DNA of 64,000 nucleotides from Candidatus Aphodosoma sp. GTDB lineage: Bacteria; Bacteroidota; Bacteroidia; Bacteroidales; Paludibacteraceae. Made by a program: the position numbers and the translations under genes. Shown here in pieces: positions 8,950-63,780 of this stretch. The stretch's first letter is position 1. Each line of letters starts with the position of its first letter. Location of the stretch: NCBI GenBank assembly GCA_045658305.1, contig JAZOUT010000087.1, forward strand, positions 1,046 through 65,045, given 5' to 3'. The notes under the pieces are model-generated. The model saw only the letters and a program-made list of their open reading frames with translations. It did not search any database and had not been told where the DNA came from.

Positions 8950-8962
8950 AGTTGAAATAAAT

Positions 8963-9001: not shown

Positions 9002-9018
9002 TTTTATGTTATAGTTGA

Positions 9019-12000: not shown

Positions 12001-15000
12001 TGACAATTTACCCGACAATATACCACCATCAAGAGCTATACATTCGGCAGGAAGTGTAGCCACATAAGTTGTAACATTAACATTACCTATACGTTTACCA
12101 GCCTCAATATCATAAGATGCTGGAACAAGAAATACACGACCATAATCTAATTTAGAACCTTCAGATTTCCAATCGTATGATACGGCATATTGTCCTTTTT
12201 CAAAACTAAACAATCTATATGCATACGCAGCAGTCTCAATATTACTATCATAACCATATACCGCTGTTTCTGCTTTTTGAGGTTCAGATGTAATATACAA
12301 TGATTTAGAATCGTTACCAATTACAAAACCATTTTTTTGATTTCCATTCACAATTATCCATTGTGAATTTTCATCAGCATTACTAAAATCAGACACATAA
12401 GGGATAACCGCAGCGGCTTTTTCTGTTCGGAATGCTATAGATTGATAATTTGAACTTTCATCCTCACCACAAACCGAACGTACAAACAAATAGTAATCAG
12501 TAGCAGGTGTAAGATTTGTCAATTCTATTGTTTTTGTAGCAGATGAACCAGCAGATAGATAATCCTCAACATCGTTAGATTTACACAAACGATATTCATA
12601 AGTATCAGCATCTGAGATTGTATTAATTGCAATCTTGGCATTTACATCATCCACCATAATCAATTGCAATGACTGAGGCATTGGACATTGCACTTTACGA
12701 ACTGAAATATCATCTATTGCCAATGGAGTTTGAGCACCACCAGAAGCATTGTTATACCACTCAATAACCAAGTTATACTTAACTGCTTTGTCAAATACAA
12801 CATCGACTACAACATCATTCCATTTTGGAGAAACATTCAAACCTTTGTTGTCATTAGAAAGCATAATACAACCTGAAACTTCATCCATATAAGAACTAAT
12901 ACGTCTACCAGCAACAATCTCTTTATCAACAGGAGCAAGATAAATTTTTCCATAGTCGGCATTATAAGCATCAGTACGTTCACCCACACATTTCCAAGAA
13001 TAAGAAATAGTGTATTGACCTGGTTCAAAATCAAATAAGCGATAAACATACGAAGATGATGCACTTCCTATTGAATATTGATTCAATTGACCATCATTTG
13101 TAATATACAACGCTTTATCACCAGATTTAACACCTAACTTATCGTCTCCAACAACAAAATAGTTAGTTTGACCTTCACCACAATATACCCAGTTGTTACT
13201 TTCTTCATCTTCAAATCCTAAAGCATAAGGCAAAGTTGGAGCATTTGCAAGTGTACGGAAACTTATTGTTTCCCAATCTGAATATTTATCAGCAGAACAT
13301 TGACAACGAACTTCAAATTGATAATTAGTAGCAGGCAACAAATCAGTCAAAGAGACAGAAGGAGTTGCAACCGTTCCAGTCTTAACTTCTGTATTATTCC
13401 ACAAAAGACGATACTCGAACGCAGTTACTGAACTATTTTCGTGATTCCATGTCAATGTAACTCCATCAGACAATCGTTCAGAAACAACCAAACCGTCAAC
13501 AGTATAACAATAGTCAGATGGAACAATTTCGATATTATCGAGACCAGCCCAAATTGCTTGTCTATCTTTAGGGTTTTTATTGTAGCGGAATACGATATAT
13601 TTATCACTCAAATCAATCTTCGCATCTGCATCGGCAAATGAATAGAAATAAGATTCAAAACCATGAATTGATGTAAATGGTAATTCTACGAGACGAGTAT
13701 AAGATTGCTCAACATTAAGGTCTGCCATAACACCCAATTCCAAAGATGTTGCAACCGTTGGATAATCTGCATCATACTCATTACGATAATCGAATGATAT
13801 TTTAAGCTCACGAAGAGGTTTGCTCATCAATGGCAATGCAAAATACATACAGTTGTTAGGCGATGAAACCAATACCAAACCTTGAGTACCTGCACTTACA
13901 TAAGTACGAGTATTTAATTCAGCTGTAGGATATGGTTCTTCCAATGACTTAAAGCTAAATAATTTAAAGCAATTATCATTTAAAGAAGTTATTCCTTCAA
14001 AACCTTCGTAATAAGGGAAATCCACATCCATTAAACATGCAGTTTGGAATTCGATAGGTCCACGCCAATCGCTATAAGTATTAGAACCACAAACGGCACG
14101 AACATATACCTCATAATTTGAAAGCGGATTCAAACCTTGTATTTCAAAGTTTTTACTACTAATTGATATTGGAGTAGCTTTATTAGGGTCAAAGCCAACT
14201 TGCCCTACAACATACTGCCAATTTGAATTAAGAGTAGTATCATTCAAAGTGAATTTAGCAAAAGTATCATACGCCACAATGAGTTTTATACTTACCGGAC
14301 GTTTGCAGCTTTGCACTTCTTCGATTGAGAAATTATCAATCAAAACAAATGATTCACCTACACCAGAAGAGGTAGCTTCAATTCCGATACAAATATCATT
14401 ACCTACATATTTAGACAAATTAAAGTGTAATGACAAAGTATCAGTCATAAATGTATAACCGCTACCTAACACAATATCAAAATTATTTCCTCCATCTTTA
14501 GACAATAAAATACGAACACTACCACTATTTTCATTATACAAATCAAAAGACAACAATGCATCTGTAACGTCTTTTAAGTCAATAATTGGAGAAACCAACA
14601 TTGATGTATAATCCTTAGAATAAACAATTTGATTATAATCATCTACATCATATGGTTGTTTATAATAATAAGCACCCATTGTATGTATCCAATAGTTACC
14701 CTCTTTATTTGGATAAGCTAACCCTTGTTTCCAACATTGAGGATGGTCTGTACCTATAAATGTTTGATCATAAGGTAATCCGTAAGAAGCACATTCTGTT
14801 TTTATTTCACCAGCCTTAGACCACCAACTTCTATCTACATCAGAACAAATTGCACGAATTTCAAAGTTATATGTCGATGCTGAATTCAACCCTGAAATAA
14901 TTGCAGGATTTGTTGTTACAATAGTATCTACGACTAACTCACTCTTATAGTAACCATTTACTTGCCACTTAGTTGCAGAACCATTCTCATACCAACGAAT

Positions 15001-25379: not shown

Positions 25380-25456
25380 GCAGTATGATTTATAGTATAT
25401 TTATCCTATATTTATGGTATATTTATCCTATATTTATAGTATATTTATGGTATGTT
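25380..25456 (+). repeat. 11-bp tandem array B (6 units plus 1 degenerate)
   Basis: (gcagtatgatt) tatagtatatt tatcctatatt tatggtatatt tatcctatatt tatagtatatt tatggtatgtt. Confidence 0.9.
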
Positions 25457-25562: not shown

Positions 25563-26045
25563 GTGAAGAAGTATGTTTTTCAAATAGTTAGTCTTTGTTT
25601 AGCAATGTTCATTGCGTATATTGGTGGTGGATTGAATATCTATCACTATTGTTGCGATGCTTGCGAAAAACATGGACACGATATATTTCAGACTATATCG
25701 TGCGAAGAGGTGCATGCAGAGCATCATTGCACAGAGGATGATTGCCACCATGAGCATCATAATCACACTCGTATTATAGAAAATAGAGATGATTTGTGCA
25801 CTCATTTGATGGCAAATTCGGCTCACTGCGATGTGCATCATGTGGAAGCACCTTATTTTTCACAATCTAATCCTTTGAAAGTGAACTTTGTGTCACCATT
25901 GATTGCGATACACCCTATATCAATGCACAATGCACAATGCATAATGCACAATATTGAGTGCAAGATACAAAGTGAGGCTATTCCTTTAGTCCAAATTCTC
26001 ACAGGACGAGCCATAATTGTGCGAAAATCTGCGTATTTGATTTAG
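25563..26045 (+). CDS. Small N-terminally membrane-anchored His/Cys-rich protein (160 aa), putative metal-binding. Reminiscent of the Bacteroidota HYC_CC_PP-type small proteins found next to TonB-dependent receptors (from memory, unverified).
   Basis: GTG start, one TM helix (VFQIVSLCLAMFIAYIGGG), then IYHYCCDACEKHGHD...HAEHHCTEDDCHHEHHNH. First gene of a same-strand cluster with a TBDR and an HMA protein. Start codon uncertain. Confidence 0.7.
   Translation: MKKYVFQIVSLCLAMFIAYIGGGLNIYHYCCDACEKHGHDIFQTISCEEVHAEHHCTEDDCHHEHHNHTRIIENRDDLCTHLMANSAHCDVHHVEAPYFSQSNPLKVNFVSPLIAIHPISMHNAQCIMHNIECKIQSEAIPLVQILTGRAIIVRKSAYLI
25921..25952 (+). repeat. Heptamer array (AATGCAC x4.5) in frame inside the His/Cys-rich protein CDS
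   Basis: c aatgcac aatgcac aatgcat aatgcac aat, translated as SMHNAQCIMHN. Confidence 0.9.
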
Positions 26046-26149: not shown

Positions 26150-28540
26150 ATGAAAAAAATAATAATGATTGTATTGTGCGTGATGCATTGTGCATTGTGC
26201 ATTAACTTGAAAGCTCAAGAGTCGACTGGAGGCACACTTTCGGGTAGCGTGATTGATGAGAACGGCGAACCAGTAATTGGAGCTGAGATATTTTGGTTAA
26301 ACTCGACTATCGGTGCGGTTACGGATATTGATGGCAATTTTACTATTCCAATGACTGTGGATAGCCACCACTTGATTTTTAATTATTTGTCGTACAAAGC
26401 TGATACAGTAGATATTACTAAGGCTTCGATGCCTCTTGTTGTGCAGATGAGCGAAGATACAAAAGAGTTGCAAGAAGTAACAGTTGCAGCACGTGGAGCA
26501 AGTACGATTGCGAGCCGCGTGAGCGCATTGCAAACTACTAAAATCACTGGTGCAGAGTTGTGTAAAGCGGCTTGTTGCAACTTGTCGGAGTCGTTCGAAA
26601 CTAATGCCTCAGTGGACGTAGCGTATGCTGATGCTGCTACTGGCGCAAAAACAATTAAATTACTCGGTTTGTCAGGCACATACGTTCAGTTGTTGACCGA
26701 AAACACTCCAGGAGTGCGTGGTTTGGCTCAAAACTATGGTATGGAATATATCCCTGGTGCTTGGATGGAGAGCATCCAGGTATCGAAAGGTACTTCGTCT
26801 GTTATAAATGGTTATGAGGCCACTACAGGTCAAATCAATGTTGAATACTTGAAACCTCAAACCCAAGACCCTATTGCGTTGAATGGTATGGTGAGCACAT
26901 CGCTTCGCGCTGAGTTGAACGCTACTGGCGGTTGGGATATCAACGAAAAATGGAGCACTGGCGTGTTGGCTCACTACAAAAATGAGAGTATGGAACACGA
27001 CACAAATGGCGACGGATTTATGGATTTGCCAAAAGGTCAACAAGCCAATTTGTTGAATCGTTGGTATATGAAAGATGGTGCATATACAGGTCAATACCTC
27101 GTGCGAGGCTTGTATGACGAGCGCAATGGCGGTCAGACAATGAAATATATTGACGAAAATGGCATTGCTGACCCATATAAAATTGGCATTCGCACATGGC
27201 GCATGGATGCGTTTATGAAACAGGGCTATGTGTTTGATGAAGCAAAAGGTACAAGTATCGGGATTATTGCAAGTGGTTCGTACCACAATCAACACAACGT
27301 ATATGGTCATCGCGTGTATGATGGCGTACAAGGCAACTTCTATTTGAATGCTATGTTCCAAACATATTTTGATGAAACTGACAAACACAAAATCACTGCG
27401 GGTTTGAGCCTCAATTATGATAACTATAAAGAAGGGATGATATCAGACAAGGCGGAGTTTATACTATCATACGATAATAATCCGATGGGAGATTCACCAG
27501 ATGCACCTGCTGGATTACCATTAGGTGATTACACTAAACTATTAGATATGACTCGCGATGAATGGACTCCGGGTGTATTTGCAGAATACTCATTGAAAGT
27601 AGATGAAAAATTGTCGCTTTTGGCAGGTGTTCGTGGCGATTATAGCACACAGTATGGATTCTTTGTAACACCACGTTTCAACGTGCGCTACTCGCCATGG
27701 GAATGGTGGAACTTGCGCGGTTCGGTGGGTATGGGCTATCGCTCGCCTAACTTGTTGAGCGACCACGCTTCAGTGTTACCTTCGTCGAGAACAATAGCAA
27801 TTGAAAGCGATGTATTAAAACAAGAACGTGCAGTAAATGCAGGTGCAAGCACTACGTTCTATATTCCTATTGCGGGTCGCGAATTGCAAATTACGGCAGA
27901 CTACTACTACACTCATTTCTTGGAATGTATGGTTGTAGATATGGACTCTGACCCATATACTGTTATATTCTCTAACCTCACAGAGGAGGGCGTAGAAGGA
28001 GGCAAAAAACCTCGCTCGTATGCAGGCAACTTCCAAGTAGAGGCATCGATGGAGGTGTTGAAAGGTTGGACTATGACACTCGCCTACCGTATGTCGGACG
28101 TAAAAAGTACAATCAATGGTGAATTACGCGAAAAACCTCTTACAAACCGCTATAAAGCACTCATCACAACTTCGTATATGACACCACTAAAACACTGGCA
28201 ATTCGACGTTACAGCACAATTTAATGGTGGTGGTCGTATGCCTGATAATTTTTATAAAGGCAATGAATCACTTCGTCCATCATGGACTATCGACCGTGGC
28301 AATGGTCAATATGATTTTCCTTGGCATGCGCAGTTGATGGCTCAAGTAACTCGTTATTTCCGCACATGGAGTATCTATGTCGGAGGCGAGAATATCACTA
28401 ACTTTACACAAGATACACCTATTATTGGCGCCGGTGACCCATACGGACAAAACTTTGATGCATCAATGGCTTGGGGACCTATCCATGGATGGAAAGTGTA
28501 TGCAGGCTTCCGTTGGGCTTTGAACCGTAAGGAAAAATAA
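26150..28540 (+). CDS. TonB-dependent receptor with N-terminal carboxypeptidase-regulatory-like domain (796 aa)
   Basis: Signal peptide; GSVIDENGEPVIGAEIFW...TDIDGNFTI (CarbopepD_reg-like); plug-like ESFETNASVDVAYADAATGAKTIKLLGL; long barrel ending in an aromatic-rich strand (YAGFRWAL). Confidence 0.88.
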   Translation: MKKIIMIVLCVMHCALCINLKAQESTGGTLSGSVIDENGEPVIGAEIFWLNSTIGAVTDIDGNFTIPMTVDSHHLIFNYLSYKADTVDITKASMPLVVQMSEDTKELQEVTVAARGASTIASRVSALQTTKITGAELCKAACCNLSESFETNASVDVAYADAATGAKTIKLLGLSGTYVQLLTENTPGVRGLAQNYGMEYIPGAWMESIQVSKGTSSVINGYEATTGQINVEYLKPQTQDPIALNGMVSTSLRAELNATGGWDINEKWSTGVLAHYKNESMEHDTNGDGFMDLPKGQQANLLNRWYMKDGAYTGQYLVRGLYDERNGGQTMKYIDENGIADPYKIGIRTWRMDAFMKQGYVFDEAKGTSIGIIASGSYHNQHNVYGHRVYDGVQGNFYLNAMFQTYFDETDKHKITAGLSLNYDNYKEGMISDKAEFILSYDNNPMGDSPDAPAGLPLGDYTKLLDMTRDEWTPGVFAEYSLKVDEKLSLLAGVRGDYSTQYGFFVTPRFNVRYSPWEWWNLRGSVGMGYRSPNLLSDHASVLPSSRTIAIESDVLKQERAVNAGASTTFYIPIAGRELQITADYYYTHFLECMVVDMDSDPYTVIFSNLTEEGVEGGKKPRSYAGNFQVEASMEVLKGWTMTLAYRMSDVKSTINGELREKPLTNRYKALITTSYMTPLKHWQFDVTAQFNGGGRMPDNFYKGNESLRPSWTIDRGNGQYDFPWHAQLMAQVTRYFRTWSIYVGGENITNFTQDTPIIGAGDPYGQNFDASMAWGPIHGWKVYAGFRWALNRKEK
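26165..26202 (+). repeat. Heptamer array (ATTGTGC family, opposite orientation) inside the TBDR signal-peptide coding region
   Basis: gattgt attgtgc gtgatgc attgtgc attgtgc att, translated as IVLCVMHCALCIN. Confidence 0.8.
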
Positions 28541-32530: not shown

Positions 32531-32598
32531 ACAACATACAATAAATATACTATAAATATAGGATAAATATATCATAAATATACTATAAACATACCATA
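32531..32598 (-). repeat. 11-bp tandem array C (6 units, minus orientation)
   Basis: The rc reads tatggtatgtt tatagtatatt tatgatatatt tatcctatatt tatagtatatt tattgtatgtt gt. Confidence 0.9.
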
Positions 32599-32662
32599 AC
32601 CCTATCCTCTCCCTCCCCTCACCCACCCCAATCACAAAAATCCACACACACCAACACACAAC

Positions 32663-42231: not shown

Positions 42232-42299
42232 ACAACATACTATAAACATACTATAAATATAGAATAAATATACTATAAATATAGGATAAACATACTATA
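42232..42299 (-). repeat. 11-bp tandem array D (6 units, minus orientation)
   Basis: The rc reads tatagtatgtt tatcctatatt tatagtatatt tattctatatt tatagtatgtt tatagtatgtt gt. Confidence 0.9.
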
Positions 42300-43380: not shown

Positions 43381-44088
43381 CATTTCAATAAGTTGTCGCA
43401 ACACCGCAAACGTCATCTTTGGTGCTTCTGCAAAAAAATCAAGATATTGCGCTGTATTATCCGTCTCCATACCTGGAGTATCGCTCACAATACGAAGACT
43501 CATAAATGGCACATTCTTAACATAACACACCTGTGCAATAGCAGCACTCTCCATATCAACAGCCTTACCATCAGGAAAATTACGTTTAATACCCCGCAAA
43601 ATAACCAAATCCGAAATAAATTGGTCGCCAGTACAAATCAAACCAAAAACGAGTCGCGAATTAAGATTCAATTGTGCATTGTGCATTATGCATTGTACAT
43701 TGTTCATTACCTCAAGCAAATGCTCATTAGCAGAAAATTTCAACGGAAAACCTTGCACTTGCCCCCACTCGCCTTCGCCACACCACACATCATGATAACA
43801 AGTTTCAGTACCGACAACAATATCCCCTTGATGCATACCTTCGCCAATGCCACCAGCTACACCACTATTAATAATGTAGTCAAGATGCATTTCGGCAATC
43901 AACGAAGTGACTTGCATTGCCGCATTCACCTTACCTATACCCGACTTAAGAAGTATAATTTGCTTACCAAAAAGCTCACCCACAAGAGCCTTAGCGCCTC
44001 CAATTTCTCGAGACTCAGCATTCTCCAATATATTGCTCACAAGATTAAACTCGCTTTGCATTGCAACTATAATTGCTATTCGTTTCAT
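43375..44088 (-). CDS. mtnN: 5'-methylthioadenosine/S-adenosylhomocysteine nucleosidase (237 aa from the ATG at 44088)
   Basis: MKRIAIIVAMQSEF, SGIGKVNAA, NSGVAGG, VDMESAAIAQV and LRIVSD match MtnN/Pfs motifs. The track ORF starts at an upstream TTG (44100). Confidence 0.9.
   Translation of the reverse strand: MKRIAIIVAMQSEFNLVSNILENAESREIGGAKALVGELFGKQIILLKSGIGKVNAAMQVTSLIAEMHLDYIINSGVAGGIGEGMHQGDIVVGTETCYHDVWCGEGEWGQVQGFPLKFSANEHLLEVMNNVQCIMHNAQLNLNSRLVFGLICTGDQFISDLVILRGIKRNFPDGKAVDMESAAIAQVCYVKNVPFMSLRIVSDTPGMETDNTAQYLDFFAEAPKMTFAVLRQLIEMI
43674..43720 (+). repeat. Heptamer array (ATTGTGC family, ~6 units) in frame inside mtnN
   Basis: attgtgc attgtgc attatgc attgtac attgttc atta, translated on the minus strand as NNVQCIMHNAQLN. 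Confidence 0.9.
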
Positions 44089-46281: not shown

Positions 46282-46287
46282 TTTGTT

Positions 46288-46374
46288 CAATGCACAATGC
46301 ACAATTCACAATGTAAGATGCTCAATTAGCCATTCGGCATCAAATAATTAATTATAAATTGTGCATTGTGAATT
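46288..46374. repeat. Inverted pair of heptamer arrays between yidC and the tRNA
   Basis: Left arm caatgca caatgca caattca caatgta (46288-315). Right arm aattgtg cattgtg aatt (46357-374). At least 13 nt are complementary, with a spacer of about 41 nt. Confidence 0.8.
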
Positions 46375-46377
46375 ATT

Positions 46378-48306
46378 TTAGTGTCTGCCTTTTGAGTTTG
46401 ACTTCATTTGACGTGCTTGTTGCTCACGAAGGGCTTGTTGTTGCGCTTTTTGAGCTTCTTCAAGACGTTGCATGAAACCTGATTTCTTTTGTGGTTTTGT
46501 TTTATTTTTCTCGAGTTGCGCAAGCACTTTTTTGTCATCAACAAAAAGACGGAACAAATATGTTTGAAGTATTGTAATCAAAAGCGATACGAAATAGTAG
46601 TATGAAAGACCTGACGCATAATTATTAAAGATGAACATAAACATCACTGGCATCATATACATCATAGTTTTCATCATACCTGCACCTGGCTGGTCGCCTG
46701 CACCTGTTGTTGCCATATTGATTTTTGTATAGATGATGTTTGTAACTGTCATCAAAAGGCAAAACAAAGAGATGTGGTTACCGAAATATGGTGTGATAAG
46801 TGGAATATACATATCCCAAGAGAGGATAGCATCGTAAGATGAGAGGTCGTCTGCCCAAAGGAATGATTGTCCACGAAGCTCAAATGCTGTTGGGAAGAAG
46901 CTGAACATAGCGAACAAAATAGGCATTTGGAATAACATAGGAAGACAGCCACTCATAGGACTTACGCCTGCTTTTTGATAAAGAGCCATAGTGGCTTGTT
47001 GGCGTTCCATTGCTTTTTCGGCAGGGATGCGAGCATTGATTTCATCGATTTGAGGACGAAGTACACGCATTTTTGCCGACGACATATATGATTTGAATGT
47101 AAATGGAAGTATCACCAATTTGATAATGATAGTCAACAAGAAGATGATAAGACCATAACTACCGATATATTTACCGAGGAAATTGAACACAGGAATGATA
47201 ACACAAGTCGTAATCCAACGGAAAAGCGACCAACCCATAGGGATGATGTGTTGGAGACGGAGTTTATCTTCGCCATCAATGTGCTTATCGTAAGATTTCA
47301 ACACACGATATTGGTTAGGACCATAATATGTATGAAATTTAGTTGAACGGGCACCATTAGGGTCGAACGCAACGCTTGCTTCCATCGAGTGTTTTTTGAT
47401 AAACTCAGAACGCTCAGGCATAATTTCAGTTTCAACAGCTGTAGCAGTGAAAGCATCATCGGCAATCATAATAGTGCTAAAGAAGTGGTCTTTGAATGCC
47501 ACCCAACGCACTTTACCTGCAAGTTTTTCTGAATCATTGCGAAGTTCAGAAAGACGTTCCATATCGTCAGAAACAAACTTATAATTAAGTGTTGCATAAC
47601 GAGACTCAAATTTGCGACCCTTCTCGTTTTGACGAATGAGCGATTGCCATTGCATATCGAGCGACGATGTATTTGGCGAGAGATATTGAGCCATATTGTG
47701 AGCTTTAATCTCCATCGAAGTCATAAAATCGTCATTAGGAATTGTATAGATGAAGTCAATATGAGCATCTGCATCAACAGCAAGACGCATAGTTACGATT
47801 TGAGCTTCATCAGTTTTGCTAACTATTGGTTCAAAATAGAGGCTCTTAGTGCTGATAATACGATTGTCGCTTGTGAAGAGAGTAAAACCAAGAGAAGCAT
47901 CACCATCAGCAAAAAGCATCAAAGGAAGCGAGTCATAACGAGTGTAATTCTTCATTTCGGCAGCACAAACGCGACCACCTTTGTTAGAAAAAGTAAGACG
48001 AATTTTCTCATTCTCTACAGCAAATTGCTCTTCTACACCAACGCCTGCAGCCGCAAAATAGCCATAAGTTTTTTCAAGACGAGCTGAATCAAGAGTCATT
48101 TCGCCAATAGCAGCAAGAGAATCCGCAACTGCTTGCTCTCGTTCAAGTTCTAACTGAGCAAGATATGCCGCCTCATTAGCAGCAGCAATAGAGTCACGCA
48201 CATGTTGACGACGCGCCAACTCTTCTTTACTTGGTTGGTTCAACCAACTGAAACCGAATATTACGGCCATTATTAGGACTAAGCCTATGACGGTGTTTTT
48301 ATCCAT
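46378..48306 (-). CDS. yidC: Membrane protein insertase YidC (long Bacteroidetes form, 642 aa)
   Basis: N-terminal TM, large periplasmic domain, conserved core GCLPMLFQMPILFAMF...SLLITILQ, and a basic C-terminal tail. Confidence 0.93.
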   Translation of the reverse strand: MDKNTVIGLVLIMAVIFGFSWLNQPSKEELARRQHVRDSIAAANEAAYLAQLELEREQAVADSLAAIGEMTLDSARLEKTYGYFAAAGVGVEEQFAVENEKIRLTFSNKGGRVCAAEMKNYTRYDSLPLMLFADGDASLGFTLFTSDNRIISTKSLYFEPIVSKTDEAQIVTMRLAVDADAHIDFIYTIPNDDFMTSMEIKAHNMAQYLSPNTSSLDMQWQSLIRQNEKGRKFESRYATLNYKFVSDDMERLSELRNDSEKLAGKVRWVAFKDHFFSTIMIADDAFTATAVETEIMPERSEFIKKHSMEASVAFDPNGARSTKFHTYYGPNQYRVLKSYDKHIDGEDKLRLQHIIPMGWSLFRWITTCVIIPVFNFLGKYIGSYGLIIFLLTIIIKLVILPFTFKSYMSSAKMRVLRPQIDEINARIPAEKAMERQQATMALYQKAGVSPMSGCLPMLFQMPILFAMFSFFPTAFELRGQSFLWADDLSSYDAILSWDMYIPLITPYFGNHISLFCLLMTVTNIIYTKINMATTGAGDQPGAGMMKTMMYMMPVMFMFIFNNYASGLSYYYFVSLLITILQTYLFRLFVDDKKVLAQLEKNKTKPQKKSGFMQRLEEAQKAQQQALREQQARQMKSNSKGRH

Positions 48307-50380: not shown

Positions 50381-50451
50381 TATAACATACTATAAATATA
50401 CTATAAACATACTATAAATATAGGATAAACATATGATAAATATACTATAAA
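50381..50451 (-). repeat. 11-bp tandem array E (6 units, minus orientation)
   Basis: The rc reads atagtatatt tatcatatgtt tatcctatatt tatagtatgtt tatagtatatt tatagtatgtt at. Confidence 0.9.
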
Positions 50452-52905: not shown

Positions 52906-53304
52906 ATGAAAAAAATCCACCTATTAATAACAGCAGCAATTATTTGGGGAATACCTGGCATCTCATTAACCATCAAAGGCATATCGGCATATCTCGCTCA
53001 ACAAAAATCTGACCTTTGGTGGCTTTTGCTCATTACTCTTTTCGTATTAACCTCATTCTTCTTCATATTCCGAAAGATAGTCAATCGCTACTCCGACAGA
53101 ATAATAAATCTCCCAGAGCGAAACAACCTACTACAAACATTCCCCTTTCGCGGCTGGTTTCTTCTTATATTCATGATGGGTTTAGGCATATCACTCAAAT
53201 ATATACCAAACATTCCTCTTGCTTTCACCGCTTGCTTCTATTCTGGATTAGGACCAATGTTAATTCTATCAGCAATAAAATTTCTTACATACACAAAAAA
53301 ATAG
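52906..53304 (+). CDS. Small 4-TM membrane protein of unknown function (132 aa)
   Basis: Complete ORF with four hydrophobic helices and its own terminator. No family recognised. Confidence 0.7.
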   Translation: MKKIHLLITAAIIWGIPGISLTIKGISAYLAQQKSDLWWLLLITLFVLTSFFFIFRKIVNRYSDRIINLPERNNLLQTFPFRGWFLLIFMMGLGISLKYIPNIPLAFTACFYSGLGPMLILSAIKFLTYTKK

Positions 53305-53335
53305 AGATGCCAACATTACGCATCTCTATTTTTTA
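53295..53335 (+). terminator. Rho-independent terminator overlapping the TAG stop of 52906..53304 (TAGAGRYGCAA family)
   Basis: atagagatgc (53301-10) pairs with gcatctctat (53320-29), followed by a T-run. Confidence 0.8.
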
Positions 53336-53340
53336 TCATA

Positions 53341-53559
53341 ACCATTAAGCGAATAATTCTACATTATGAACCGAAGGTCATGAGCCTTTAGGCGAATAAT
53401 TGTGAATTGTGAACCGAAGGTCATGAGCCGTTAGGCAAATAATTATGCATTATACATTGTGAACCGAAGGTCATGACCGTTAAGGCGAATAATTGTGAAT
53501 TGTGCATTGTGCATTATGCATTGTGCATTGTGAATTGTGAATTGTGAATTGTGCATTAA
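53341..53559. repeat. Composite satellite downstream of polA: three ~44-52-bp units (GCGAATAATT-heptamers-GAACCGAAGGTCATGAGCC) followed by a 9.5-unit heptamer array
   Basis: gaaccgaaggtcatga(g)cc occurs at 53368, 53412 and 53461. The pure array 53491-53557 reads aattgtg aattgtg cattgtg cattatg cattgtg cattgtg aattgtg aattgtg aattgtg catt and ends 2 nt before the polA stop codon. Confidence 0.9.
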
Positions 53560-56541
53560 CTAATGCGCCTCAAGCCAATTCGACCCCACACCAATATCCA
53601 CTCGCAATGGCACCGACAATTTCACGGCTCCTTCCATCTCTTCGCGCACCAATGCCTTCACTCTTTCCACCTCATCAAGCGGAACGTTAAAGTTCAATTC
53701 GTCGTGCACTTGCAATAGCATCTCTGCCTTCAATCCCTCGCGCTTTAATCTATCGGCTATCTTCACCATTGCTATCTTTATAATATCTGCCGCCGTGCCT
53801 TGTATTGGCGCATTCACAGCATTGCGCTCGGCATATCCTCTCACATTTGCGTTCCGTGAATTTATATCTGGCAAATATCTCCTGCGGTGCAACATCGTCT
53901 CTACATACCCATCTCTACGCGCATTCTCTATCGTTGTGTCAATATAATCTTTCACACCTGGGAAGCTCATAAAGTATCCATCTATCAACTCCTTAGCCTC
54001 AGCACGCGATATACCCAATCTCTCCGACAACCCAAAAATAGAGATACCATATATAATGCCAAAATTCGCAGTCTTAGCCTTCCTACGCATATCGCTCGTC
54101 ACCTCCTCAATCGGCACTTTATAGATATTTGCTGCCGTTGCCGCGTGAATGTCATGGTCGGCATTGAACGCCGCCAACATATTCTCATCTTGCGACAAAT
54201 GCGCCATCAATCTTAGCTCTACTTGCGAGTAGTCGGCCGACATAAACACGTGCCCTTCAGATGCTATGAATGCCTTGCGTATCTCTTTGCCTTGCTCATC
54301 GCGAATAGGTATATTCTGCAAGTTTGGGTTCGACGACGACAATCGTCCCGTAGCCGTAACGGTTTGGTTAAACGATGTATGCACTCTGCCTGTCCGCCCA
54401 TTTATCAATTTTGGCAATGCATCTATATAGGTGCTGAGCAACTTCTTCACTCCCCTATATTCCAATATCTCGCCCACCACTGGGTGTTTCGCTCTCAATC
54501 CCTCCAATGTCTCCTCGTCCGTAACATATTGTCCACTTTTTGTTTTCTTAGCTTTATCGCTTATTTTCAACACATCAAACAACAATTCTCCCACCTGTTT
54601 AGGCGAACTAATATTTAGGTTCGAGCCCGATATTTCACGTATATGACGCTCTATGCGCTGCATTTCGGCTGTCATCACGCCCGACGATTGCGCCAATGCA
54701 AAGTCGTCTATTATCACCCCCGTGCGCTCCATCTCTGCCAACACTCTCACGAGTGGCATCTCCACTTCATAAAACAATCTCGCCAAACTTCCATTGTCCC
54801 CACTATTGTCCCCCTGTCTTAGGGGGACGAGCGTAGCGGAGGGGGTCAAACCCACAGGGGGCAAACTCACGGGGGTCAAACCCTCGGGGGTCAAACTCAA
54901 TTGTGGCTCCAACACACCCCTCAATCGCAACGTAATATCAGCATCCTCTGCCGCATAATTGGTTATCTTATCCAACGGCACATCGCGCATCGACCCCTGA
55001 TTCTTTCCCTTCGCGCCTATCAACTCATCGATATGTATTGTCTTATATTTCAACAATATCTCTGCCAAGTAGTCCATACTATGACGCAACTCTGGTTGCA
55101 ACAAATAGTGCGCTATCATCGTGTCAAATAGTTGTCCTTTCAACTCAACACCATAATTTGCCAGCACCATCAAGTCGTATTTAATGTTATGCCCCGTCTT
55201 CTCAATCGCCTCATTCTCAAATACTGCGCGAAACAAATCTACCGTCTTTTGAGCCTCTGCCCTATCCTCACTCACCGGCACATAATATGCTGTAGGCAAT
55301 TGTGAGTTCTCCGACAAGTCCGACAGGTCTGACCCGTCCAACAAATCCGAATTGTGCATTGTGCATTGTACATTGTGCATTGCAAAAGAAAATCCCACCA
55401 ACTCCGCATCCAACACATCCAACGACGTAGTCTCTGTGTCGAACGCAAACATCTTCACCCCCATCAACATCTCCACCAACTCCCTCTGCTTCTCCTCCGT
55501 ATCCACACACACATAATTCACCTTCTCAACATCAAAACTCGCAAACTTCACCTCCTCATTCTCAATTCTCAATTCTCCATTCTCAATTCTCAATTCCTCA
55601 TTCCTAATTCCTAACTCCTCATTATCAAAAAGCGACCCCATCCCCGAATTATCCTTCACTCCTAACTCCTCATTCCTAATTCCTAATTTCTTAATGTGGC
55701 TCCTAAACTCCAACTCCTCATAGATTTCCACCAACGCCTTCACATCTGGCTCCTCTATCACAAATCGCGCCTCATCAAACTCTACAGGCGCATCGGTCTT
55801 TATCGTAGCCAAGAATTTCGAGAACCTAATCTGCTCCACATTTGCCTCCACCTTCGCCCTTAGCGCACCTTTTATTTCATCCGTATGCGACAACATATTG
55901 TCTATACCGCCAAATTGTTGCAACAACTTCACCGCTGTCTTCTCTCCCACGCCTGGGCAACCAGGTATGTTGTCCGACGCATCACCCATCAATCCCAACA
56001 AATCAATCACTTGCGCAGTCGATTCCAACCCCCATTTCTCCAACACCTCTGCCACGCCGAGCGTATCAAATCCCGACCCGCCAAATCGTGGTTTATAGAT
56101 TTTAATATTCTCTGTCACCAACTGCCCATAATCCTTATCAGGCGTCATCATCAACACCTCAAAACCCTCCTTCTCAGCCAACCCTGCCAACGTACCAATC
56201 ACATCATCTGCCTCATAGCCCGGCACCTCAATCACCGGTATTCTATATGCCTCCACTATCTGCTTGATGATAGGCACCGCCTTACGAATATCCTCTGGCG
56301 TAGCCTCACGATTTGCCTTATACTCCTCGTATGCCTCATGCCTGAATGTCGGACCCGACGGGTCGAACACCACTGCCAAATGCGAAGGCTTCTCCCGTGT
56401 CAACACATCCTCCAGCGTATTCACAAAACCAAATATCGCCGACGTATTCATCCCCTTCGAATTAATCCTCGGCATACGCATAAATGCATAATAAGCCCTA
56501 TAAATCAACGCATAAGCATCAAGCAAAAACAATCTTTTCAT
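53560..56541 (-). CDS. polA: DNA polymerase I (993 aa) carrying three in-frame short-repeat insertions
   Basis: 5'-nuclease N-terminus (LFLLDAYALIYRAYYA), 3'-5' exo (FAFDTETTSLD), polymerase motifs (DYSQVELR, RRKAKTANFGIIYG, QVHDEL). Low-complexity inserts are detailed under findings. Confidence 0.96.
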   Translation of the reverse strand: MKRLFLLDAYALIYRAYYAFMRMPRINSKGMNTSAIFGFVNTLEDVLTREKPSHLAVVFDPSGPTFRHEAYEEYKANREATPEDIRKAVPIIKQIVEAYRIPVIEVPGYEADDVIGTLAGLAEKEGFEVLMMTPDKDYGQLVTENIKIYKPRFGGSGFDTLGVAEVLEKWGLESTAQVIDLLGLMGDASDNIPGCPGVGEKTAVKLLQQFGGIDNMLSHTDEIKGALRAKVEANVEQIRFSKFLATIKTDAPVEFDEARFVIEEPDVKALVEIYEELEFRSHIKKLGIRNEELGVKDNSGMGSLFDNEELGIRNEELRIENGELRIENEEVKFASFDVEKVNYVCVDTEEKQRELVEMLMGVKMFAFDTETTSLDVLDAELVGFSFAMHNVQCTMHNSDLLDGSDLSDLSENSQLPTAYYVPVSEDRAEAQKTVDLFRAVFENEAIEKTGHNIKYDLMVLANYGVELKGQLFDTMIAHYLLQPELRHSMDYLAEILLKYKTIHIDELIGAKGKNQGSMRDVPLDKITNYAAEDADITLRLRGVLEPQLSLTPEGLTPVSLPPVGLTPSATLVPLRQGDNSGDNGSLARLFYEVEMPLVRVLAEMERTGVIIDDFALAQSSGVMTAEMQRIERHIREISGSNLNISSPKQVGELLFDVLKISDKAKKTKSGQYVTDEETLEGLRAKHPVVGEILEYRGVKKLLSTYIDALPKLINGRTGRVHTSFNQTVTATGRLSSSNPNLQNIPIRDEQGKEIRKAFIASEGHVFMSADYSQVELRLMAHLSQDENMLAAFNADHDIHAATAANIYKVPIEEVTSDMRRKAKTANFGIIYGISIFGLSERLGISRAEAKELIDGYFMSFPGVKDYIDTTIENARRDGYVETMLHRRRYLPDINSRNANVRGYAERNAVNAPIQGTAADIIKIAMVKIADRLKREGLKAEMLLQVHDELNFNVPLDEVERVKALVREEMEGAVKLSVPLRVDIGVGSNWLEAH
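54791..54898 (-). repeat. In-frame repeat insertion 3 in polA: 2x12-bp units, a 7-bp-stem palindrome and 4x15-bp units
   Basis: attgtcccc recurs at a 12-nt spacing. Palindrome gtccccc-tgtctta-gggggac. Four 15-mers, (g)gggtcaaac-type, at 54839-54898. Translated as LTPEGLTPVSLPPVGLTPSATLVPLRQGDNSGDNGS. Confidence 0.85.
55311..55383 (-). repeat. In-frame repeat insertion 2 in polA: 5x9-bp (CCGACAAGT family) abutting 4.7x7-bp (ATTGTGC family)
   Basis: ccgacaagt ccgacaggt ctgacccgt ccaacaaat ccgaattgt, then attgtgc attgtgc attgtac attgtgc attgc. Translated as AMHNVQCTMHNSDLLDGSDLSDLSE. Confidence 0.9.
55554..55688 (-). repeat. In-frame repeat insertion 1 in polA: 10-unit and 4-unit heptamer arrays (AATTGAG/AATTAGG/AATGAGG on the coding strand)
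   Basis: Plus strand 55554-55623: cctcatt ctcaatt ctcaatt ctccatt ctcaatt ctcaatt cctcatt cctaatt cctaact cctcatt. 55661-55688: cctaact cctcatt cctaatt cctaatt. Translated as NEELGIRNEELRIENGELRIENEE and LGIRNEELG. Confidence 0.9.
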
Positions 56542-56582
56542 AATTCAAATATTTAATATCTTAATAAAAATCAACAACCATT

Positions 56583-56624
56583 ATTGACCATCGACTATCG
56601 ACGATTGTCCATCAACATTTCAAC
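56583..56624. repeat. Heptamer array (ATTGACC/ATCGACT family, ~6 units) in the polA upstream region
   Basis: attgacc atcgact atcgacg attgtcc atcaaca tttcaac. Confidence 0.65.
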
Positions 56625-56690
56625 CACAAAATTAACAAAAAAAATCCAAACAACCATCACATTCCCACAAAAAATCCACACATAACAAAC

Positions 56691-56776
56691 CAGTGCAACC
56701 AGTGCAAGCAGTGCAACCCCCAAAAAACTGAAAATGCACCTTGCACACCTTGCACTACTTGCACTACTTGCACTCC
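56691..56776. repeat. Two 9-bp tandem arrays in inverted orientation (potential ~27-bp imperfect stem)
   Basis: cagtgcaac cagtgcaag cagtgcaac (56691-717) against ttgcacacc ttgcactac ttgcactac ttgcactcc (56741-76). cttgcactg is the rc of cagtgcaag. Confidence 0.8.
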
Positions 56777-56859
56777 CAATCATGAGCGAAGCGAATAACT
56801 CTTAATTAACACAACGCCGCATGGCAATTTTATCGCCAAAGGCACAAAGACCTTCGGTT

Positions 56860-56887
56860 CTTAATTCTTAATTGTTAATTATTAATT
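56860..56887. repeat. Heptamer array (CTTAATT x4), preceded by gaccttcggttc, the rc of the GAACCGAAGGTC module seen at 53368/53412/53461
   Basis: cttaatt cttaatt gttaatt attaatt. Confidence 0.8.
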
Positions 56888-57189
56888 CCCCCCCACTCAT
56901 AGTGTGTACTACCCCACAGCAACCCTCAAGCAACCTGCAAGCAAGCAAACAGTCAAGGAGAGAACGCAAACACACACTCACAGTATGTGTTTTGCTGAGC
57001 GACGCAGACTGTTCACGACCGAAGGGAGTAAACCGTCAAAAAGCGAACGCAAAAATACACAACGAGAGTGTGTATTCCGCAGTGTAGGGACACTCGGTTC
57101 GAGTGTCCTCTCAACCGACAGGTTGAAAAAAACATAATCATTTGTCTCTAACGAAACATCGGACGCACGAACCGAGCATCCCTGCTAAT

Positions 57190-57221
57190 AAGATACATCC
57201 CTCACGATGTATCTCTTTTTT
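57190..57221 (+). terminator. Orphan plus-strand Rho-independent terminator with no annotated gene upstream
   Basis: agatacatc (57190-98) pairs with gatgtatct (57205-13), followed by c plus T7. Confidence 0.7.
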
Positions 57222-57402
57222 TAATGAGTAAACAACATTAAACAATCATTTCTATCTTAAACAATCACAAACCGTCAGTGCCCCAGCAAAATATCGTAAC
57301 TTTGCACCGCATTTCATCACCCAACATAGCACTCCACAACACCCATCATCACATTAATCAAAAAAACATAAAAAAACTTATTGCCAATTACAAAAAAATC
57401 AC

Positions 57403-57410
57403 TACCTTTG
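57403..57410 (+). promoter_or_regulatory. -7 promoter motif TACCTTTG for the hydrogenase gene (a second motif, TAACTTTG, lies at 57297-57304)
   Basis: Motif 92 nt upstream of the ATG at 57502. The upstream copy is 198 nt away. Confidence 0.5.
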
Positions 57411-57462
57411 TACCTTGAAAAATTATACACAAAAAAACTTCATCAAAGTGAGATAAAAAGCT

Positions 57463-57497
57463 CACTAATAACTAGTAACTAGTAACTAATCACTAAA
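57463..57497 (+). repeat. Heptamer array (5 units) in the hydrogenase 5' UTR, ending 4 nt before the ATG
   Basis: cactaat aactagt aactagt aactaat cactaaa. Confidence 0.75.
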
Positions 57498-57501
57498 TAT
57501 T

Positions 57502-58962
57502 ATGGCTTTTACTAACAATGTAATGATTGTTCGCCATGGTCTTTTGGCGAAACTCGTAAAACTTTGGAAAGAAGACAAACTCGTTGAAGAAATCGACGAG
57601 CTCCCTATCCAGCTCTCTCCACGTCAATCTAAAGTTCGTGGCCGTTGCTGTATTCACAAAGAACGCGCAGTGTGGAAATACAAAACTTTCCCTCTCCTCG
57701 GCTTCGATATGTCTGACGAAGTGAGCGAAAACACTCCACTCTCTCACTATGCTAAAGAAGCTCTTGCTCGCCAAGAACGCACTAAAAAGAACATCATGTG
57801 CGTGATGGACGAAGCTTGCTCTTCTTGCGTTCAAACTAACTACGAAATCTCTAACCTCTGCCGTGGTTGCGTTGCTCGTAGTTGTTATATGAACTGCCCT
57901 AAAAACGCAATTCACTTCAAATCTAATGGTCAAGCCGAAATCGACCACGATGTTTGTATCTCTTGCGGTATCTGTCACCAAAGCTGTCCTTACCACGCTA
58001 TCATCTACGTGCCAGTGCCTTGCGAAGAAGCTTGCCCTGTAAAAGCTATCACTAAAGACGAACATGGCGTAGAGCACATCGACGAAAACAAATGTATCTA
58101 TTGCGGTAAATGCGTCAACGCTTGCCCATTCGGTGCTATCTTCGAAATATCTCAAGTATTCGACATCCTCGAAACTATCAAAAACCCTAACAAAAAAATC
58201 GTGGCAATGGTAGCTCCTGCTATCCTTTCACAATTCAACACTACTCTCGAACACCTCTACGGCGCACTCAAAGAAATCGGCTTCGACGACGTTATCGAAG
58301 TTGCCCTCGGTGCTGACGAAACTACTCGTCGCGAAAGCCACGAGCTCATCGAGAAACTCGAAGAAGGTCAACCATTCATGACTACTTCATGCTGCCCTTC
58401 TTACATCCAACTCGTAAAGAAACACATCCCAGAAATGGAAAAATATGTTTCTACTACTCTCTCTCCAATGCGCTACACTGCCGAAATTGCTAAAGAAAAA
58501 TATCCTGACTGCAAAACAGTATTCATCGGCCCATGTATCGCTAAACGTAAAGAGGCTGAATATAGCGAAAACGTTGACTTCGTAATGACTTTCGAAGAAC
58601 TTGGCTCAATCCTCGACGGTATGGAAATCAACCTCGAACAAGTTGCTCCATTCCAAATCGACAAAGAAGCTTACCTCTCTTCTCATGGTTATGGTTCTAC
58701 AGGCGGTGTAACTAAAGCTGTTGTTGAACACCTCGGTGGTCCAGAAGTTAACGCTCTTCTCCTCAGCAACCTCAACAAGAAAAACATCGGTCTCCTCCGT
58801 GCATACGCTAAATCTGGCAAATGCCCTAACCAATTCATCGAAGTTATGGCTTGCGAAAACGGCTGTATCAGCGGTCCTGTGACTCGTATTGACAAAGCTA
58901 CTGCAGCTAAAGTCTATACAAAAGAATTAGCTAAAATGGCAACTCAACGAGAGCAAAAATAA
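57502..58962 (+). CDS. Monomeric [FeFe]-hydrogenase-type protein (486 aa) with two 4Fe-4S ferredoxin motifs and H-cluster motifs
   Basis: CISCGICHQSCPYHAI and CIYCGKCVNACPFGAI (4Fe-4S). TSCCPSY, GPCIAKRKE and EVMACENGCISGP match H-cluster signatures L1-L3. Confidence 0.85.
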   Translation: MAFTNNVMIVRHGLLAKLVKLWKEDKLVEEIDELPIQLSPRQSKVRGRCCIHKERAVWKYKTFPLLGFDMSDEVSENTPLSHYAKEALARQERTKKNIMCVMDEACSSCVQTNYEISNLCRGCVARSCYMNCPKNAIHFKSNGQAEIDHDVCISCGICHQSCPYHAIIYVPVPCEEACPVKAITKDEHGVEHIDENKCIYCGKCVNACPFGAIFEISQVFDILETIKNPNKKIVAMVAPAILSQFNTTLEHLYGALKEIGFDDVIEVALGADETTRRESHELIEKLEEGQPFMTTSCCPSYIQLVKKHIPEMEKYVSTTLSPMRYTAEIAKEKYPDCKTVFIGPCIAKRKEAEYSENVDFVMTFEELGSILDGMEINLEQVAPFQIDKEAYLSSHGYGSTGGVTKAVVEHLGGPEVNALLLSNLNKKNIGLLRAYAKSGKCPNQFIEVMACENGCISGPVTRIDKATAAKVYTKELAKMATQREQK

Positions 58963-62221: not shown

Positions 62222-62275
62222 CAAAAAAAAACACAACTACCCAAAGGCATTCTTTCTACATTTTCAAGATTGCTT

Positions 62276-62330
62276 TATAGTATGTTTATAGTATATTTAT
62301 CATATATTTATAGTATGTTATAGTATACTT
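62276..62330 (+). repeat. 11-bp tandem array F (4 units plus 1 degenerate)
   Basis: tatagtatgtt tatagtatatt tatcatatatt tatagtatgtt atagtatactt. Confidence 0.9.
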
Positions 62331-62341
62331 AAGGTAATACT

Positions 62342-62730: not shown

Positions 62731-63780
62731 ATGAAACACTTGATAATCGCATGCCTCACAATCGCATCAACACTTACTGTCTTTGCTAAAACCGTAGTAA
62801 CCCCTTTCGATGCTTCCAAAGACTATCTCAACGGTATCACATATTCACTCCCTAAAACAAAAATCGACATTGTAATTACCGCACGCCACACAATCGAAAA
62901 ACCAGGTCCTTTCTACCAATATGCCGAACGCTACCTCGCCACTAAAGAGATTATCACCATCAACAACGAGACTTGGCAAATCGACAACATCGAAATCAAA
63001 TCGAATGCCATTGCCGACCCTAATCGCACATTCCAAGTTGCAATCGACAACAAAGGCATCGCCAACAACATAACATACGCCCACGACAACATCATCGCCG
63101 GAGTGAATGTTTTGTCGGACTGGTTGAACAAATCGGACAAATCGGACGAATCGGACAAGTCAGACAAAACGATTAAATTCGACTACTCCGTCCTCAACGA
63201 AGACGCCCTTGTTGCTACTTCTATTCCTAAAATGGCTGAAATGGTAGCACGCCAAATCTACCACATCCGCGAGAGTCGTACTGCACTTCTCTCTGCCGAC
63301 CTCGACCAAATACCTGACGGCAAAGCTCTCAAAACTATGCTCGCTCAACTTGATAAAGAAGAAACCGAATTAGTTGCATTCTTCGTTGGAAAATCTACAT
63401 CTTACACTGTAACAAAAACTTACAGTATCACTCCCGACGACGACCTCAAAGATTACGTCATCGCCCGCATCAGCATATCAGAAGGTCTAACCAGTGCAGG
63501 CAACGTCATCGGCGAACCTATCTATCTCAACGTTGAAGGCACTTACATCAACACCCCTCTCACCGACCCTAAAAAAGAAAAAGCCCCTAAAGGCTTCTAC
63601 TACAACGTGCCAGGCAAAGCCAAAATCACTATCGAAAGTCCCGACTTCACCACACAAACAACTCTAACTATCGCCCAATTCGGCTACACTACATATCTCA
63701 ATGCCAAATTGACCAACAACAAAACAGCACGCATCACCTTCAACCCCGAACTTGGCACAATCATCAAAATCGAAAAATAA
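62731..63780 (+). CDS. Secreted protein of unknown function (349 aa), DUF4831-like
   Basis: Signal peptide MKHLIIACLTIASTLTVFA. YSLPKTKIDIVI...GPFYQYAERYL resembles DUF4831 proteins of Bacteroidales (from memory). Contains an in-frame 9-bp repeat insert. Confidence 0.75.
   Translation: MKHLIIACLTIASTLTVFAKTVVTPFDASKDYLNGITYSLPKTKIDIVITARHTIEKPGPFYQYAERYLATKEIITINNETWQIDNIEIKSNAIADPNRTFQVAIDNKGIANNITYAHDNIIAGVNVLSDWLNKSDKSDESDKSDKTIKFDYSVLNEDALVATSIPKMAEMVARQIYHIRESRTALLSADLDQIPDGKALKTMLAQLDKEETELVAFFVGKSTSYTVTKTYSITPDDDLKDYVIARISISEGLTSAGNVIGEPIYLNVEGTYINTPLTDPKKEKAPKGFYYNVPGKAKITIESPDFTTQTTLTIAQFGYTTYLNAKLTNNKTARITFNPELGTIIKIEK
63112..63165 (+). repeat. In-frame 9-bp tandem array (6 units, TCGGAC core)
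   Basis: ttgtcggac tggttgaac aaatcggac aaatcggac gaatcggac aagtcagac, translated as LSDWLNKSDKSDESDKSD. Confidence 0.9.

Follow-up and report, generated by a model that had tools for sequence, protein, structure and literature searches.

Heptamer and nonamer repeats in a hypervariable exonuclease-domain loop of DNA polymerase I in a Paludibacteraceae-like clade of animal-gut metagenomes

The polA gene of Candidatus Aphodosoma sp. (Bacteroidota; Paludibacteraceae) lies in a 64,000-nucleotide stretch of contig JAZOUT010000087.1 (assembly GCA_045658305.1), which was analyzed as a whole and is referred to here as the window. The DNA polymerase I that it encodes carries, within its 3'-5' exonuclease domain, a loop of 30 amino acids built from two abutting tandem arrays, one of 7-nt and the other of 9-nt units. 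The most probable explanation (with a probability of approx. 0.78) is a slippage-driven, frame-filtered and probably neutral repeat expansion at a permissive hairpin, being part of a lineage-wide proliferation of such repeats. The evidence comprises the anatomy of the arrays, the restriction of the expansion to one clade, length steps of 7 amino acids, frameshift variants at the level of repeat units, intact catalytic motifs, a predicted disordered loop and the genome-wide distribution of the repeats.

The polA gene (positions 53560-56541, minus strand) is a single uninterrupted open reading frame (ORF) encoding a full-length protein of 993 amino acids. Four Pfam domains were recognized in it (PF02739, PF01367, PF01612 and PF00476; E-values of 1e-30 to 1e-166), and within the one ORF the 5'-3' exonuclease precedes the 3'-5' exonuclease, with the family A polymerase last; in PDB, the protein strongly matched Taq polymerase and the Klenow fragment. 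The residue patterns of DEDD exonucleases (DxE, NxxxD and YxxxD) are all present, and in an alignment of 30 sequences the residues of Exo I (D368/E370), Exo II (N452/D456) and Exo III (Y529/D533) are invariant. The Exo I motif D368-T-E370 (55432-55440, minus strand), with T369 also in an invariant column, is placed only 17 residues ahead of the insert. A pseudogene or a disrupted exonuclease, named in the initial annotation (made from the sequence alone) as a refuting outcome, was ruled out by the intact ORF and the invariant catalytic residues, and the exonuclease activity is probably retained.

The expanded loop (peptide MHNVQCTMHNSDLLDGSDLSDLSENSQLPT, residues 388-417, positions 55291-55380, minus strand) occupies the beta2-beta3 hairpin between the segments LVGFSFA and AYYVPV. 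Its heptamer array (ATTGTGC on the plus strand, coding on the minus strand) was delimited with Tandem Repeats Finder (TRF) at 55351-55382 (period 7, 4.6 units, 92% matches) and, by a separate heptamer-array scan, at 55349-55382. The nonamer array (coding unit TCGGACNNN, approx. 5 units, coding on the minus strand) was found at 55310-55350 (TRF period 9, 4.6 copies, 68% matches, consensus TCCGACAAG). The two TRF calls abut at 55350/55351, which agrees with the earlier description of 4.7 units of ATTGTGC joined directly to five 9-mers. Read along the plus strand, region 55310-55382 consists of the nonamers tccgacaag tccgacagg tctgacccg tccaacaaa tccgaattg, followed by the heptamers tgcattg tgcattg tacattg tgcattg. 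In the coding direction, translation of the heptamers ATGCACA ATGTACA ATGCACA ATGCACA AT (unit GCACAAT) yields MHNVQCTMHN, and that of the nonamers TCGGATTTG TTGGACGGG TCAGACCTG TCGGACTTG TCGGAGAAC yields SDLLDGSDLSDLSEN, which is read as SDL LDG SDL SDL SEN.

Both repeats exceed random expectation. For three consecutive ATTGTGC units (with up to 3 mismatches) the window has 19 matches, whereas 100 shuffled sequences had none, and the spaced pattern TCGGACNNNTCGGACNNNTCGGA (again with up to 3 mismatches) gave 9 matches vs 0 in shuffles. The latter matches are confined to the polA loop and region 63115-63164, that is, to a second nonamer array (TCGGACAAA, read as SDK SDE SDK SDK; 63115-63168, plus strand) located in ORF 62731-63780. 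The kinship that had been proposed between the polA 9-mers and the SDK array (63128-63168) holds in the form of a common TCGGAC core accompanied by three variable bases, and the orthologous polA loop of one close relative (locus L087) carries an SDK unit (TCAGACAAA) alongside SDG and SDL units.

Alignment with the Klenow fragment is split in two exactly at the insert, where approx. 25 query residues face 6 Klenow residues; the gap of about six residues given for Escherichia coli Pol I in the initial annotation is therefore correct. In an AlphaFold2 model of the polA product (built on 30 homologues; mean predicted local distance difference test score, pLDDT, of 74), the insert appears as a low-confidence coil (residues 391-414, pLDDT <50) between predicted strands 381-388 and 417-422, so the model, too, depicts the insert as a loop and predicts it to be disordered. 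All three repeat-built segments of the protein (288-339, 391-414 and 551-584) have pLDDT values below 50. In the RNase H-like topology of DEDD exonucleases the beta2-beta3 turn would face away from the end of beta1 that bears the DxE motif. An intein or another structured insertion is unsupported, as the insert is 30 residues long, of low complexity and predicted to be disordered.

A protein search with the polA product retrieved 83 clusters of close relatives (77-91% identity), all of them from metagenome assemblies, after which the identity falls abruptly to 69% or less. One of these relatives is labelled as a Paludibacteraceae bacterium, and the clade can be described as Paludibacteraceae-like; a scan of genome-collection contigs returned polA relatives of up to 65% identity only. 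The loop is 8-37 amino acids long in the close relatives. In outgroups it has 5 amino acids: this applies to all 32 pattern-matched proteins of up to 69% identity, as well as to all 62 outgroup Bacteroidales loci in which the loop was located (80 loci were analyzed and the loop pattern missed it in 18). The possibility that such a loop is normal for the order Bacteroidales was thus rejected, and the loop expansion is specific to the clade. An assembly artefact was also ruled out, as the same architecture is found in dozens of independent ENA and NCBI assemblies.

The peptides occupying the loop differ strongly among the relatives. These include MHNAQCTMHN..., IERHETRDTRHE..., MQITDYRLQITD... 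and IKSTVNSQQST..., joined with SDL/SDG/SDK units and NSQLSTLNSQ units. Comparison of the DNA at the loci of ten close relatives revealed that each 7-residue period of the peptide corresponds to three heptamer copies, which are read in all three frames because 7 and 3 have no common factor. In this manner GCACAAT gives MHNAQCT, ACACGAG gives TRDTRHE, CAACAGT gives QQSTVNS, ATTACAG gives ITDYRLQ and AATTCTC gives NSQLSIL. The loop has a modular order: a heptamer array (of ATGCACA, AGACACG, TCAACAG or ATTACAG) is followed by TCGGACNNN nonamers, whose number varies among the orthologues, then by AAYTCTC heptamers and finally by CCTACA. In allele P0003, IHNSQFT (unit AATTCAC) takes the place of the MHNVQCT (unit AATGCAC) of the window. 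The shortest allele of the clade (L081, ATGCACAATGCAGAACTCCCTACG) encodes 8 amino acids, and compared with it the window allele is longer by 21 nt (3 heptamers) and by 45 nt (5 nonamers), both gains being multiples of three.

Changes in copy number can be followed most closely in pairs of nearly identical proteins (backbone identity was computed after excising the three variable regions of polA). Each of three such pairs, P0039/P0040 (99.9% backbone identity), P0032/P0061 (99.3%) and P0073/P0079 (98.8%), differs by an insertion of 7 amino acids in the loop (NSQLSTL, YRLQITD and AQCTMHN, respectively), i.e. by 3 heptamers. At a single site, the ATTACAG array ranges from approx. 2 units (L083, loop of 14 amino acids) to 11 units (L088, loop of 35 amino acids). 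Steps of one and two units were encountered in two short contigs: L091 (873 nt) has 3 instead of 4 units of TCAACAG (-7 nt), and L092 (725 nt) lacks 14 nt of the same array; in both, polA remains open in another frame. The two frameshifted fragments stand against 83 in-frame clusters. As each of them carries an additional stop codon, they were used solely as evidence for the one-unit mutational step; they may be pseudogenes or decaying copies, minor OFF variants or poor assemblies. A protein search for frameshifted alleles, made with the loop region alone, returned 20 short proteins and not the full-length set.

Two other segments of polA are also built from repeats. The linker that joins the 5' nuclease to the exonuclease (55553-55688, minus strand; pLDDT <50 at 288-339) combines GAATTGA (TRF 55553-55628, period 21) with AATTAGG (55656-55688), and its arrays vary among the relatives. 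Each third unit of the GAATTGA repeat is GAATGGA, by which a TGA stop codon is avoided and a super-period of 21 nt is produced; selection on the reading frame is visible in this repeat. The GCACAAT unit has no stop codon in any frame of either strand, and in the window the stop-bearing heptamers TTCTTAA and TAACTAG are confined to the intergenic DNA upstream of polA. The other segment is an insert at the junction of the exonuclease and polymerase domains (residues approx. 549-585, positions 54787-54897, minus strand; pLDDT <50 at 551-584), which contains a 15-nt repeat at 54840-54899 (LTPEGLTPVSLPPVGLTPSATLVPLRQGDNSG) and a hairpin with an 8-bp stem (GTCCCCCT-aagac-AGGGGGAC, 54808-54828, minus strand) that is in frame and encodes VPLRQGD. 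The junction insert is a presence/absence polymorphism, occurring in approx. 15 of the 83 relatives as 23-44 residues beyond the standard 'IEEMGL'. Moreover, the loops of L083 and L088 contain a perfect 20-bp palindrome (GGACACGGCATGCCGTGTCC), in frame and encoding DTACRVP. The in-frame palindromes of the junction and of these loops recall protein-coding palindromes.

Directly past the polA stop codon (53491-53557), a mixed AATTGTG/CATTGTG array of 9-10 units was found, and an array in this position is kept in L084, L085, L086, L088 and L089 (4.4-8.9 units). Including this array and the polA loop, the GCACAAT family is represented by six arrays in the window. One of them (43668-43708, minus strand) lies in frame in a loop of the methylthioadenosine/S-adenosylhomocysteine nucleosidase Pfs, where it is read as MNNVQCIMHNAQL and coincides with a 6-residue insertion relative to PDB 4qez. 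The baseline length of this loop is 28 amino acids, while clade members have 35, 39, 43 or 46, with arrays of AATTCTC, CAACAGT or GCACAAT at the same site. In the opposite coding orientation, ATTGTGC (26173-26203, plus strand; read as CVMHCALCI) forms the hydrophobic core of the signal peptide (MKKIIMIVLCVMHCALCINLKAQE) of a TonB-dependent-receptor-like ORF. The remaining two GCACAAT arrays are located in a small Cys/His-rich ORF (25563-26045; array at 25921-25952, plus strand, read as SMHNAQCIMHN) and in intergenic DNA just 3' of ORF 46378-48306 of the minus strand (46284-46312). In total, 7 of the 12 heptamer arrays of the window are inside ORFs.

Per 10 kb, the window and 9 of the 10 clade loci (approx. 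170 kb sampled) contain 1.9-12.9 heptamer arrays, and only 10 arrays (0.15 per 10 kb) were found in 659 kb of outgroup DNA, so that the arrays are 10-80 times denser in the clade. No heptamer arrays were detected in 3 kb of the sister-lineage locus L090 (P0081, 78% identity). In the clade, repeats occupy three sites within polA (linker, loop and exonuclease/polymerase junction) and the DNA just past its stop codon, as well as the Pfs loop and signal peptides.

These observations can be accommodated in the following scenario. Slipped-strand mispairing would add or remove whole 7-nt or 9-nt units, and within ORFs only heptamer steps of three units (21 nt, 7 amino acids) and stop-free unit variants would survive selection. 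A point mutation arising in one unit could spread through the array by further slippage, so that arrays would drift among one-substitution neighbours such as AATTCTC, AATTCAC and AATGCAC, and recombination between strains may shuffle the loop alleles. A single array in the linker of L089 does mix AATGCAC, AATTCAC, AATGCAG and AATTGAG, and the commonest families are such neighbours mixed within arrays, as is expected of mutation combined with homogenization by slippage. Most likely the repeats encode a disordered surface loop without function, whose position outside the catalytic motifs would explain why it is tolerated. The polA loop is one case of the lineage-wide repeat proliferation in a Paludibacteraceae-like clade of animal-gut metagenomes, with slippage as the probable mutational process and the insert probably neutral.

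Several findings speak against this interpretation. Backbones identical in approx. 99% carry unrelated heptamer families at one site (P0006/P0030 and P0016/P0058); ACACGAG and ATTACAG are at least three substitutions away from GCACAAT, and CAACAGT is also distant. Since unrelated families share one site, local slippage does not account for the new families, which would need recombination, ectopic conversion or very fast turnover. Both frameshifted contigs have a further stop codon (in L091 at the 5' end; in L092 by a change of TCG to TAG at S241). Non-repeat segments of polA (610-616, 704-706 and 722-757) were also modelled with low confidence by AlphaFold2, and because some of the polymerase domain behaves in this way, a low pLDDT alone is not diagnostic of repeats. 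Finally, at least 120 contigs from metagenomes, whose GC contents span 0.30 to 0.69, carry exact (GCACAAT)x3, which hints at more than lineage-specific drift.

In these metagenome contigs (L093-L172), GCACAAT arrays reach 15 units and are often translated within long ORFs. They also form the hydrophobic cores of signal peptides (e.g. 'MKKIFLIILCIVHCALCIDLNAQE' in L103). The polar reading, NAQCTMH, is evenly distributed along the ORFs, whereas the hydrophobic reading, LCIVHCA, is clustered in their first tenth, right behind Met-Lys/Arg, as in a signal peptide. This orientation-dependent placement also indicates that the arrays are filtered through the proteins they encode. Around 104 GCACAAT arrays that were compared, nothing was conserved beyond the unit, and neither inverted repeats nor target duplications were found there; region 53300-56700 of the window contains no inverted repeats of 14 nt or longer. 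As the flanks share only the unit, there is no signature of a mobile element, and one with defined ends was rejected for polA as well as for the 104 arrays. In viral contigs, GCACAAT had 11 matches, and three composition-matched, stop-free control heptamers had 2, 2 and 74. The last value belongs to (AATCCAG)x3, whose 74 contigs (L228-L301) come mostly from one sample (IMG 3300045988; contigs of 20-45 kb); it looks like a conserved repeat of one abundant phage group. Heptamer abundance is idiosyncratic, and the viral scan is for this reason uninformative on whether GCACAAT is special.

An alternative, which we regard as unlikely, is that heptamers are seeded actively or horizontally instead of arising in place: a sequence-specific process, such as ectopic conversion or template switching between arrays or a repeat-adding enzyme, would put a few of them at permissive sites of many genes, and possibly across lineages. 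It would explain why GCACAAT, AATTCTC, CAACAGT and ACACGAG recur at unrelated sites (the linker and loop of polA and the loop of Pfs), why near-identical backbones bear different families at one site, and why, in L085, an ACACGAG array is present in both the polA linker and the loop, approx. 300 nt apart; the (GCACAAT)x3 contigs, in which the array is often surrounded by GC-rich DNA, and the excess of GCACAAT over two of the control heptamers in viral contigs can be read in the same way. However, neither the 104 arrays nor polA show conserved ends, inverted repeats or target duplications, and no candidate for a repeat-adding enzyme was found. The third control heptamer (with its 74 viral matches, mostly from one sample) makes it doubtful that GCACAAT stands out, single arrays mix the main families, which are one substitution apart, as fits evolution in place, and the growth of ATTACAG can be traced at one and the same site between L083, with a proto-repeat of 2 units, and L088, with 11. 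A more specific proposal, which we judge rather improbable, is that GCACAAT/ATTGTGC arrays and their one-substitution neighbours constitute a particular family spreading between sites, and possibly between lineages, by an unrecognized mechanism that places them in permissive sites of many genes. If this were true, loops of cytoplasmic enzymes would take the polar orientation and signal peptides the hydrophobic one, the arrays in polA would form a slippage-prone site able to split the enzyme, and GCACAAT arrays would be the tandem-repeat counterpart of Rickettsia palindromic elements (RPE), in bacteria of 30%-69% GC.

Two further explanations assign a role to the loop. In one, which is very unlikely, polA is a phase-variable contingency locus: by gaining or losing one or two units, the gene would alternate between full-length Pol I and a split product, in which the 5' nuclease carries an inactive remnant of the exonuclease and translation may restart downstream, and a reversible repair-deficient or mutator state would result. 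A non-triplet repeat within an ORF and the -7 nt and -14 nt alleles with a still open downstream polA frame are consistent with it; in the -7 nt frame a TGA overlaps a GTG (the V of 'PVS', GTGA), a second ORF was called at that place (L091, 400-873), and a frameshift would leave the 5' nuclease domain intact. On the other hand, arrays of 3-5 units are short and would switch slowly, the ratio of 2 frameshifted fragments to 83 in-frame clusters and the extra stop codon of both fragments fit decay or poor assembly better, polA is a housekeeping rather than a surface or restriction gene, and the repeats also occur where switching makes no sense (past stop codons and in Pfs). The other explanation, a selected function of the loop peptide, e.g. 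as an acidic docking or regulatory segment rich in Ser and Asp, seems least credible. The SDL/SDG/SDK units do make up a Ser/Asp-rich peptide of low complexity and all clade members retain a loop of at least 8 amino acids, but the loop varies from 8 to 37 amino acids and, on backbones of 99% identity, contains unrelated peptides (MHNAQCT, ITDYRLQ, TRHETRD and QQSTVNS), which recur in unrelated proteins and whose DNA repeats are also present in non-coding DNA; furthermore, the region is predicted to be disordered.

The surroundings of polA and other parts of the window contain repeats of further types. Between the convergent ends of polA and ORF 52906-53304, 3.6 copies of a 43-50-nt unit (GAACCGAAGGTCATGAGCC and heptamers) occupy 53345-53511 and run into the heptamer array behind the polA stop codon. 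On the other side, the approx. 960 nt (56548-57496) separating polA from a divergent Fe-hydrogenase-like gene (57502-58962) are crowded with tandem arrays of 9-mers (AACCAGTGC and CTTGCACTA), 7-mers (TTCTTAA and ACTAATA) and one 11-mer. In L087, polA and rpsO are separated by an insertion (8935-13118) of two genes with GmrSD_N domains (634 and 759 amino acids), which suggest a defence of the type IV restriction kind; in the other loci polA and rpsO are adjacent or have only a small ORF between them. ORF 62731-63780 has a signal peptide, and its SDK/SDE nonamer array is located in the middle of the protein. Arrays of 11-nt units (the TTTATAGTATA / ATACTATAAAT family; 5-7 copies) were found at six sites, all of them intergenic: 8787-8862, 25382-25453, 32536-32599, 42234-42299, 50387-50451 and 62274-62331. 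Five of the six are situated either between divergent genes or 100-300 bp ahead of a gene start, and the 11-bp period, which is near the helical repeat, suggests phased bent DNA upstream of promoters.

Core housekeeping enzymes can be colonized by non-triplet microsatellites, which are kept as blocks of three units, and the result is strain-specific loops, predicted to be disordered, on proteins that are otherwise identical in approx. 99%. Metagenome assemblies break at such loci, protein clusters are overcounted, and alignments and domain boundaries become misleading; the loci might also allow strains of this gut lineage to be told apart very finely. The clade is also a natural experiment, which may reveal where Pol I, Pfs and signal peptides accept arbitrary insertions, and it bears on the frame filtering of repeat evolution, as seen in the stop-avoiding third unit and the orientation-dependent placement. 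It bears, too, on what makes heptamers in particular proliferate in some lineages, a question that dates from the 2007 survey of simple-sequence repeats in bacteria. Literature searches on heptamer repeats in coding regions of Bacteroidetes yielded no account of such a case, and translated heptamer arrays in three-unit blocks, placed in loops of core enzymes and hypervariable among strains, are apparently undescribed.

RPE, which Ogata et al. reportedly observed in 2000 in frame within protein-coding genes, are approx. 100-150 bp long and have a defined palindromic consensus. Background on such elements is given in PMC1458961 and PMC10969869. Like RPE, the repeats described here are in-frame repetitive DNA at surface-exposed sites of housekeeping proteins, which are not destroyed by it, with the same element occurring in many unrelated proteins; unlike them, the polA loop insert consists of pure tandem arrays without defined ends, and the nearby in-frame palindromes are far smaller. 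With the E. coli Klenow fragment (PDB 1KFS and 1DPI) the window protein shares the fold, the Exo I, II and III residues and the flanking LVGxSFA and AYxxPV strands, but the tight turn of approx. 5-6 residues is replaced by 30. A resemblance to phase-variable contingency loci (PMC3315296) lies in the non-triplet repeat in an ORF, where a change of one unit shifts the frame; the differences are the housekeeping gene, the short arrays, the alleles that are nearly all in frame and the three-unit length steps in place of on/off switching. Contingency loci typically have long arrays and belong to surface, restriction-modification or host-interaction genes. Tandem TAACTGA arrays (PMC4679880), which occur in Beggiatoaceae, in Cyanobacteria and in some Bacteroidetes, are likewise scattered over genomes and patchily distributed among phyla with no evident mechanism of mobility, and their placement, too, is restricted by frame and stop content. 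However, TAACTGA contains stops and is found mostly just upstream of start codons, with a regulatory role proposed (PMC4679880), whereas GCACAAT is stop-free and translated.

The closest relatives of the polA arrays are heptanucleotide repeats as a class. Within the long simple sequence repeats (units of 5-11 nt), those of this unit length are over-represented in some bacteria, and polymerase slippage has been proposed to favour 7-nt units, according to the survey of Mrazek, Guo and Shah (2007) as cited in PMC4679880 and PMC4692102; the heptamer arrays described in these two papers are mainly intergenic, and repeats in coding regions mostly have units that are multiples of three. The polA loop has the features of this class, namely at least three copies, in excess of chance, differences of whole units between alleles and enrichment in a lineage. 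As in other heptanucleotide repeats, including the short tandemly repeated repetitive sequences (STRR) of cyanobacteria, the 7-nt units are arranged head to tail, are enriched in a lineage, vary in copy number and form several families per genome. Unlike STRR and the heptamers of Xanthomonas and Nostoc, which are mainly intergenic, more than half of the arrays of the window are inside ORFs, housekeeping genes included. What further sets the repeats of this clade apart from known heptamer repeats is that the arrays are kept in frame as three-unit blocks of 7 amino acids, and that one and the same site is occupied by strain-specific families.

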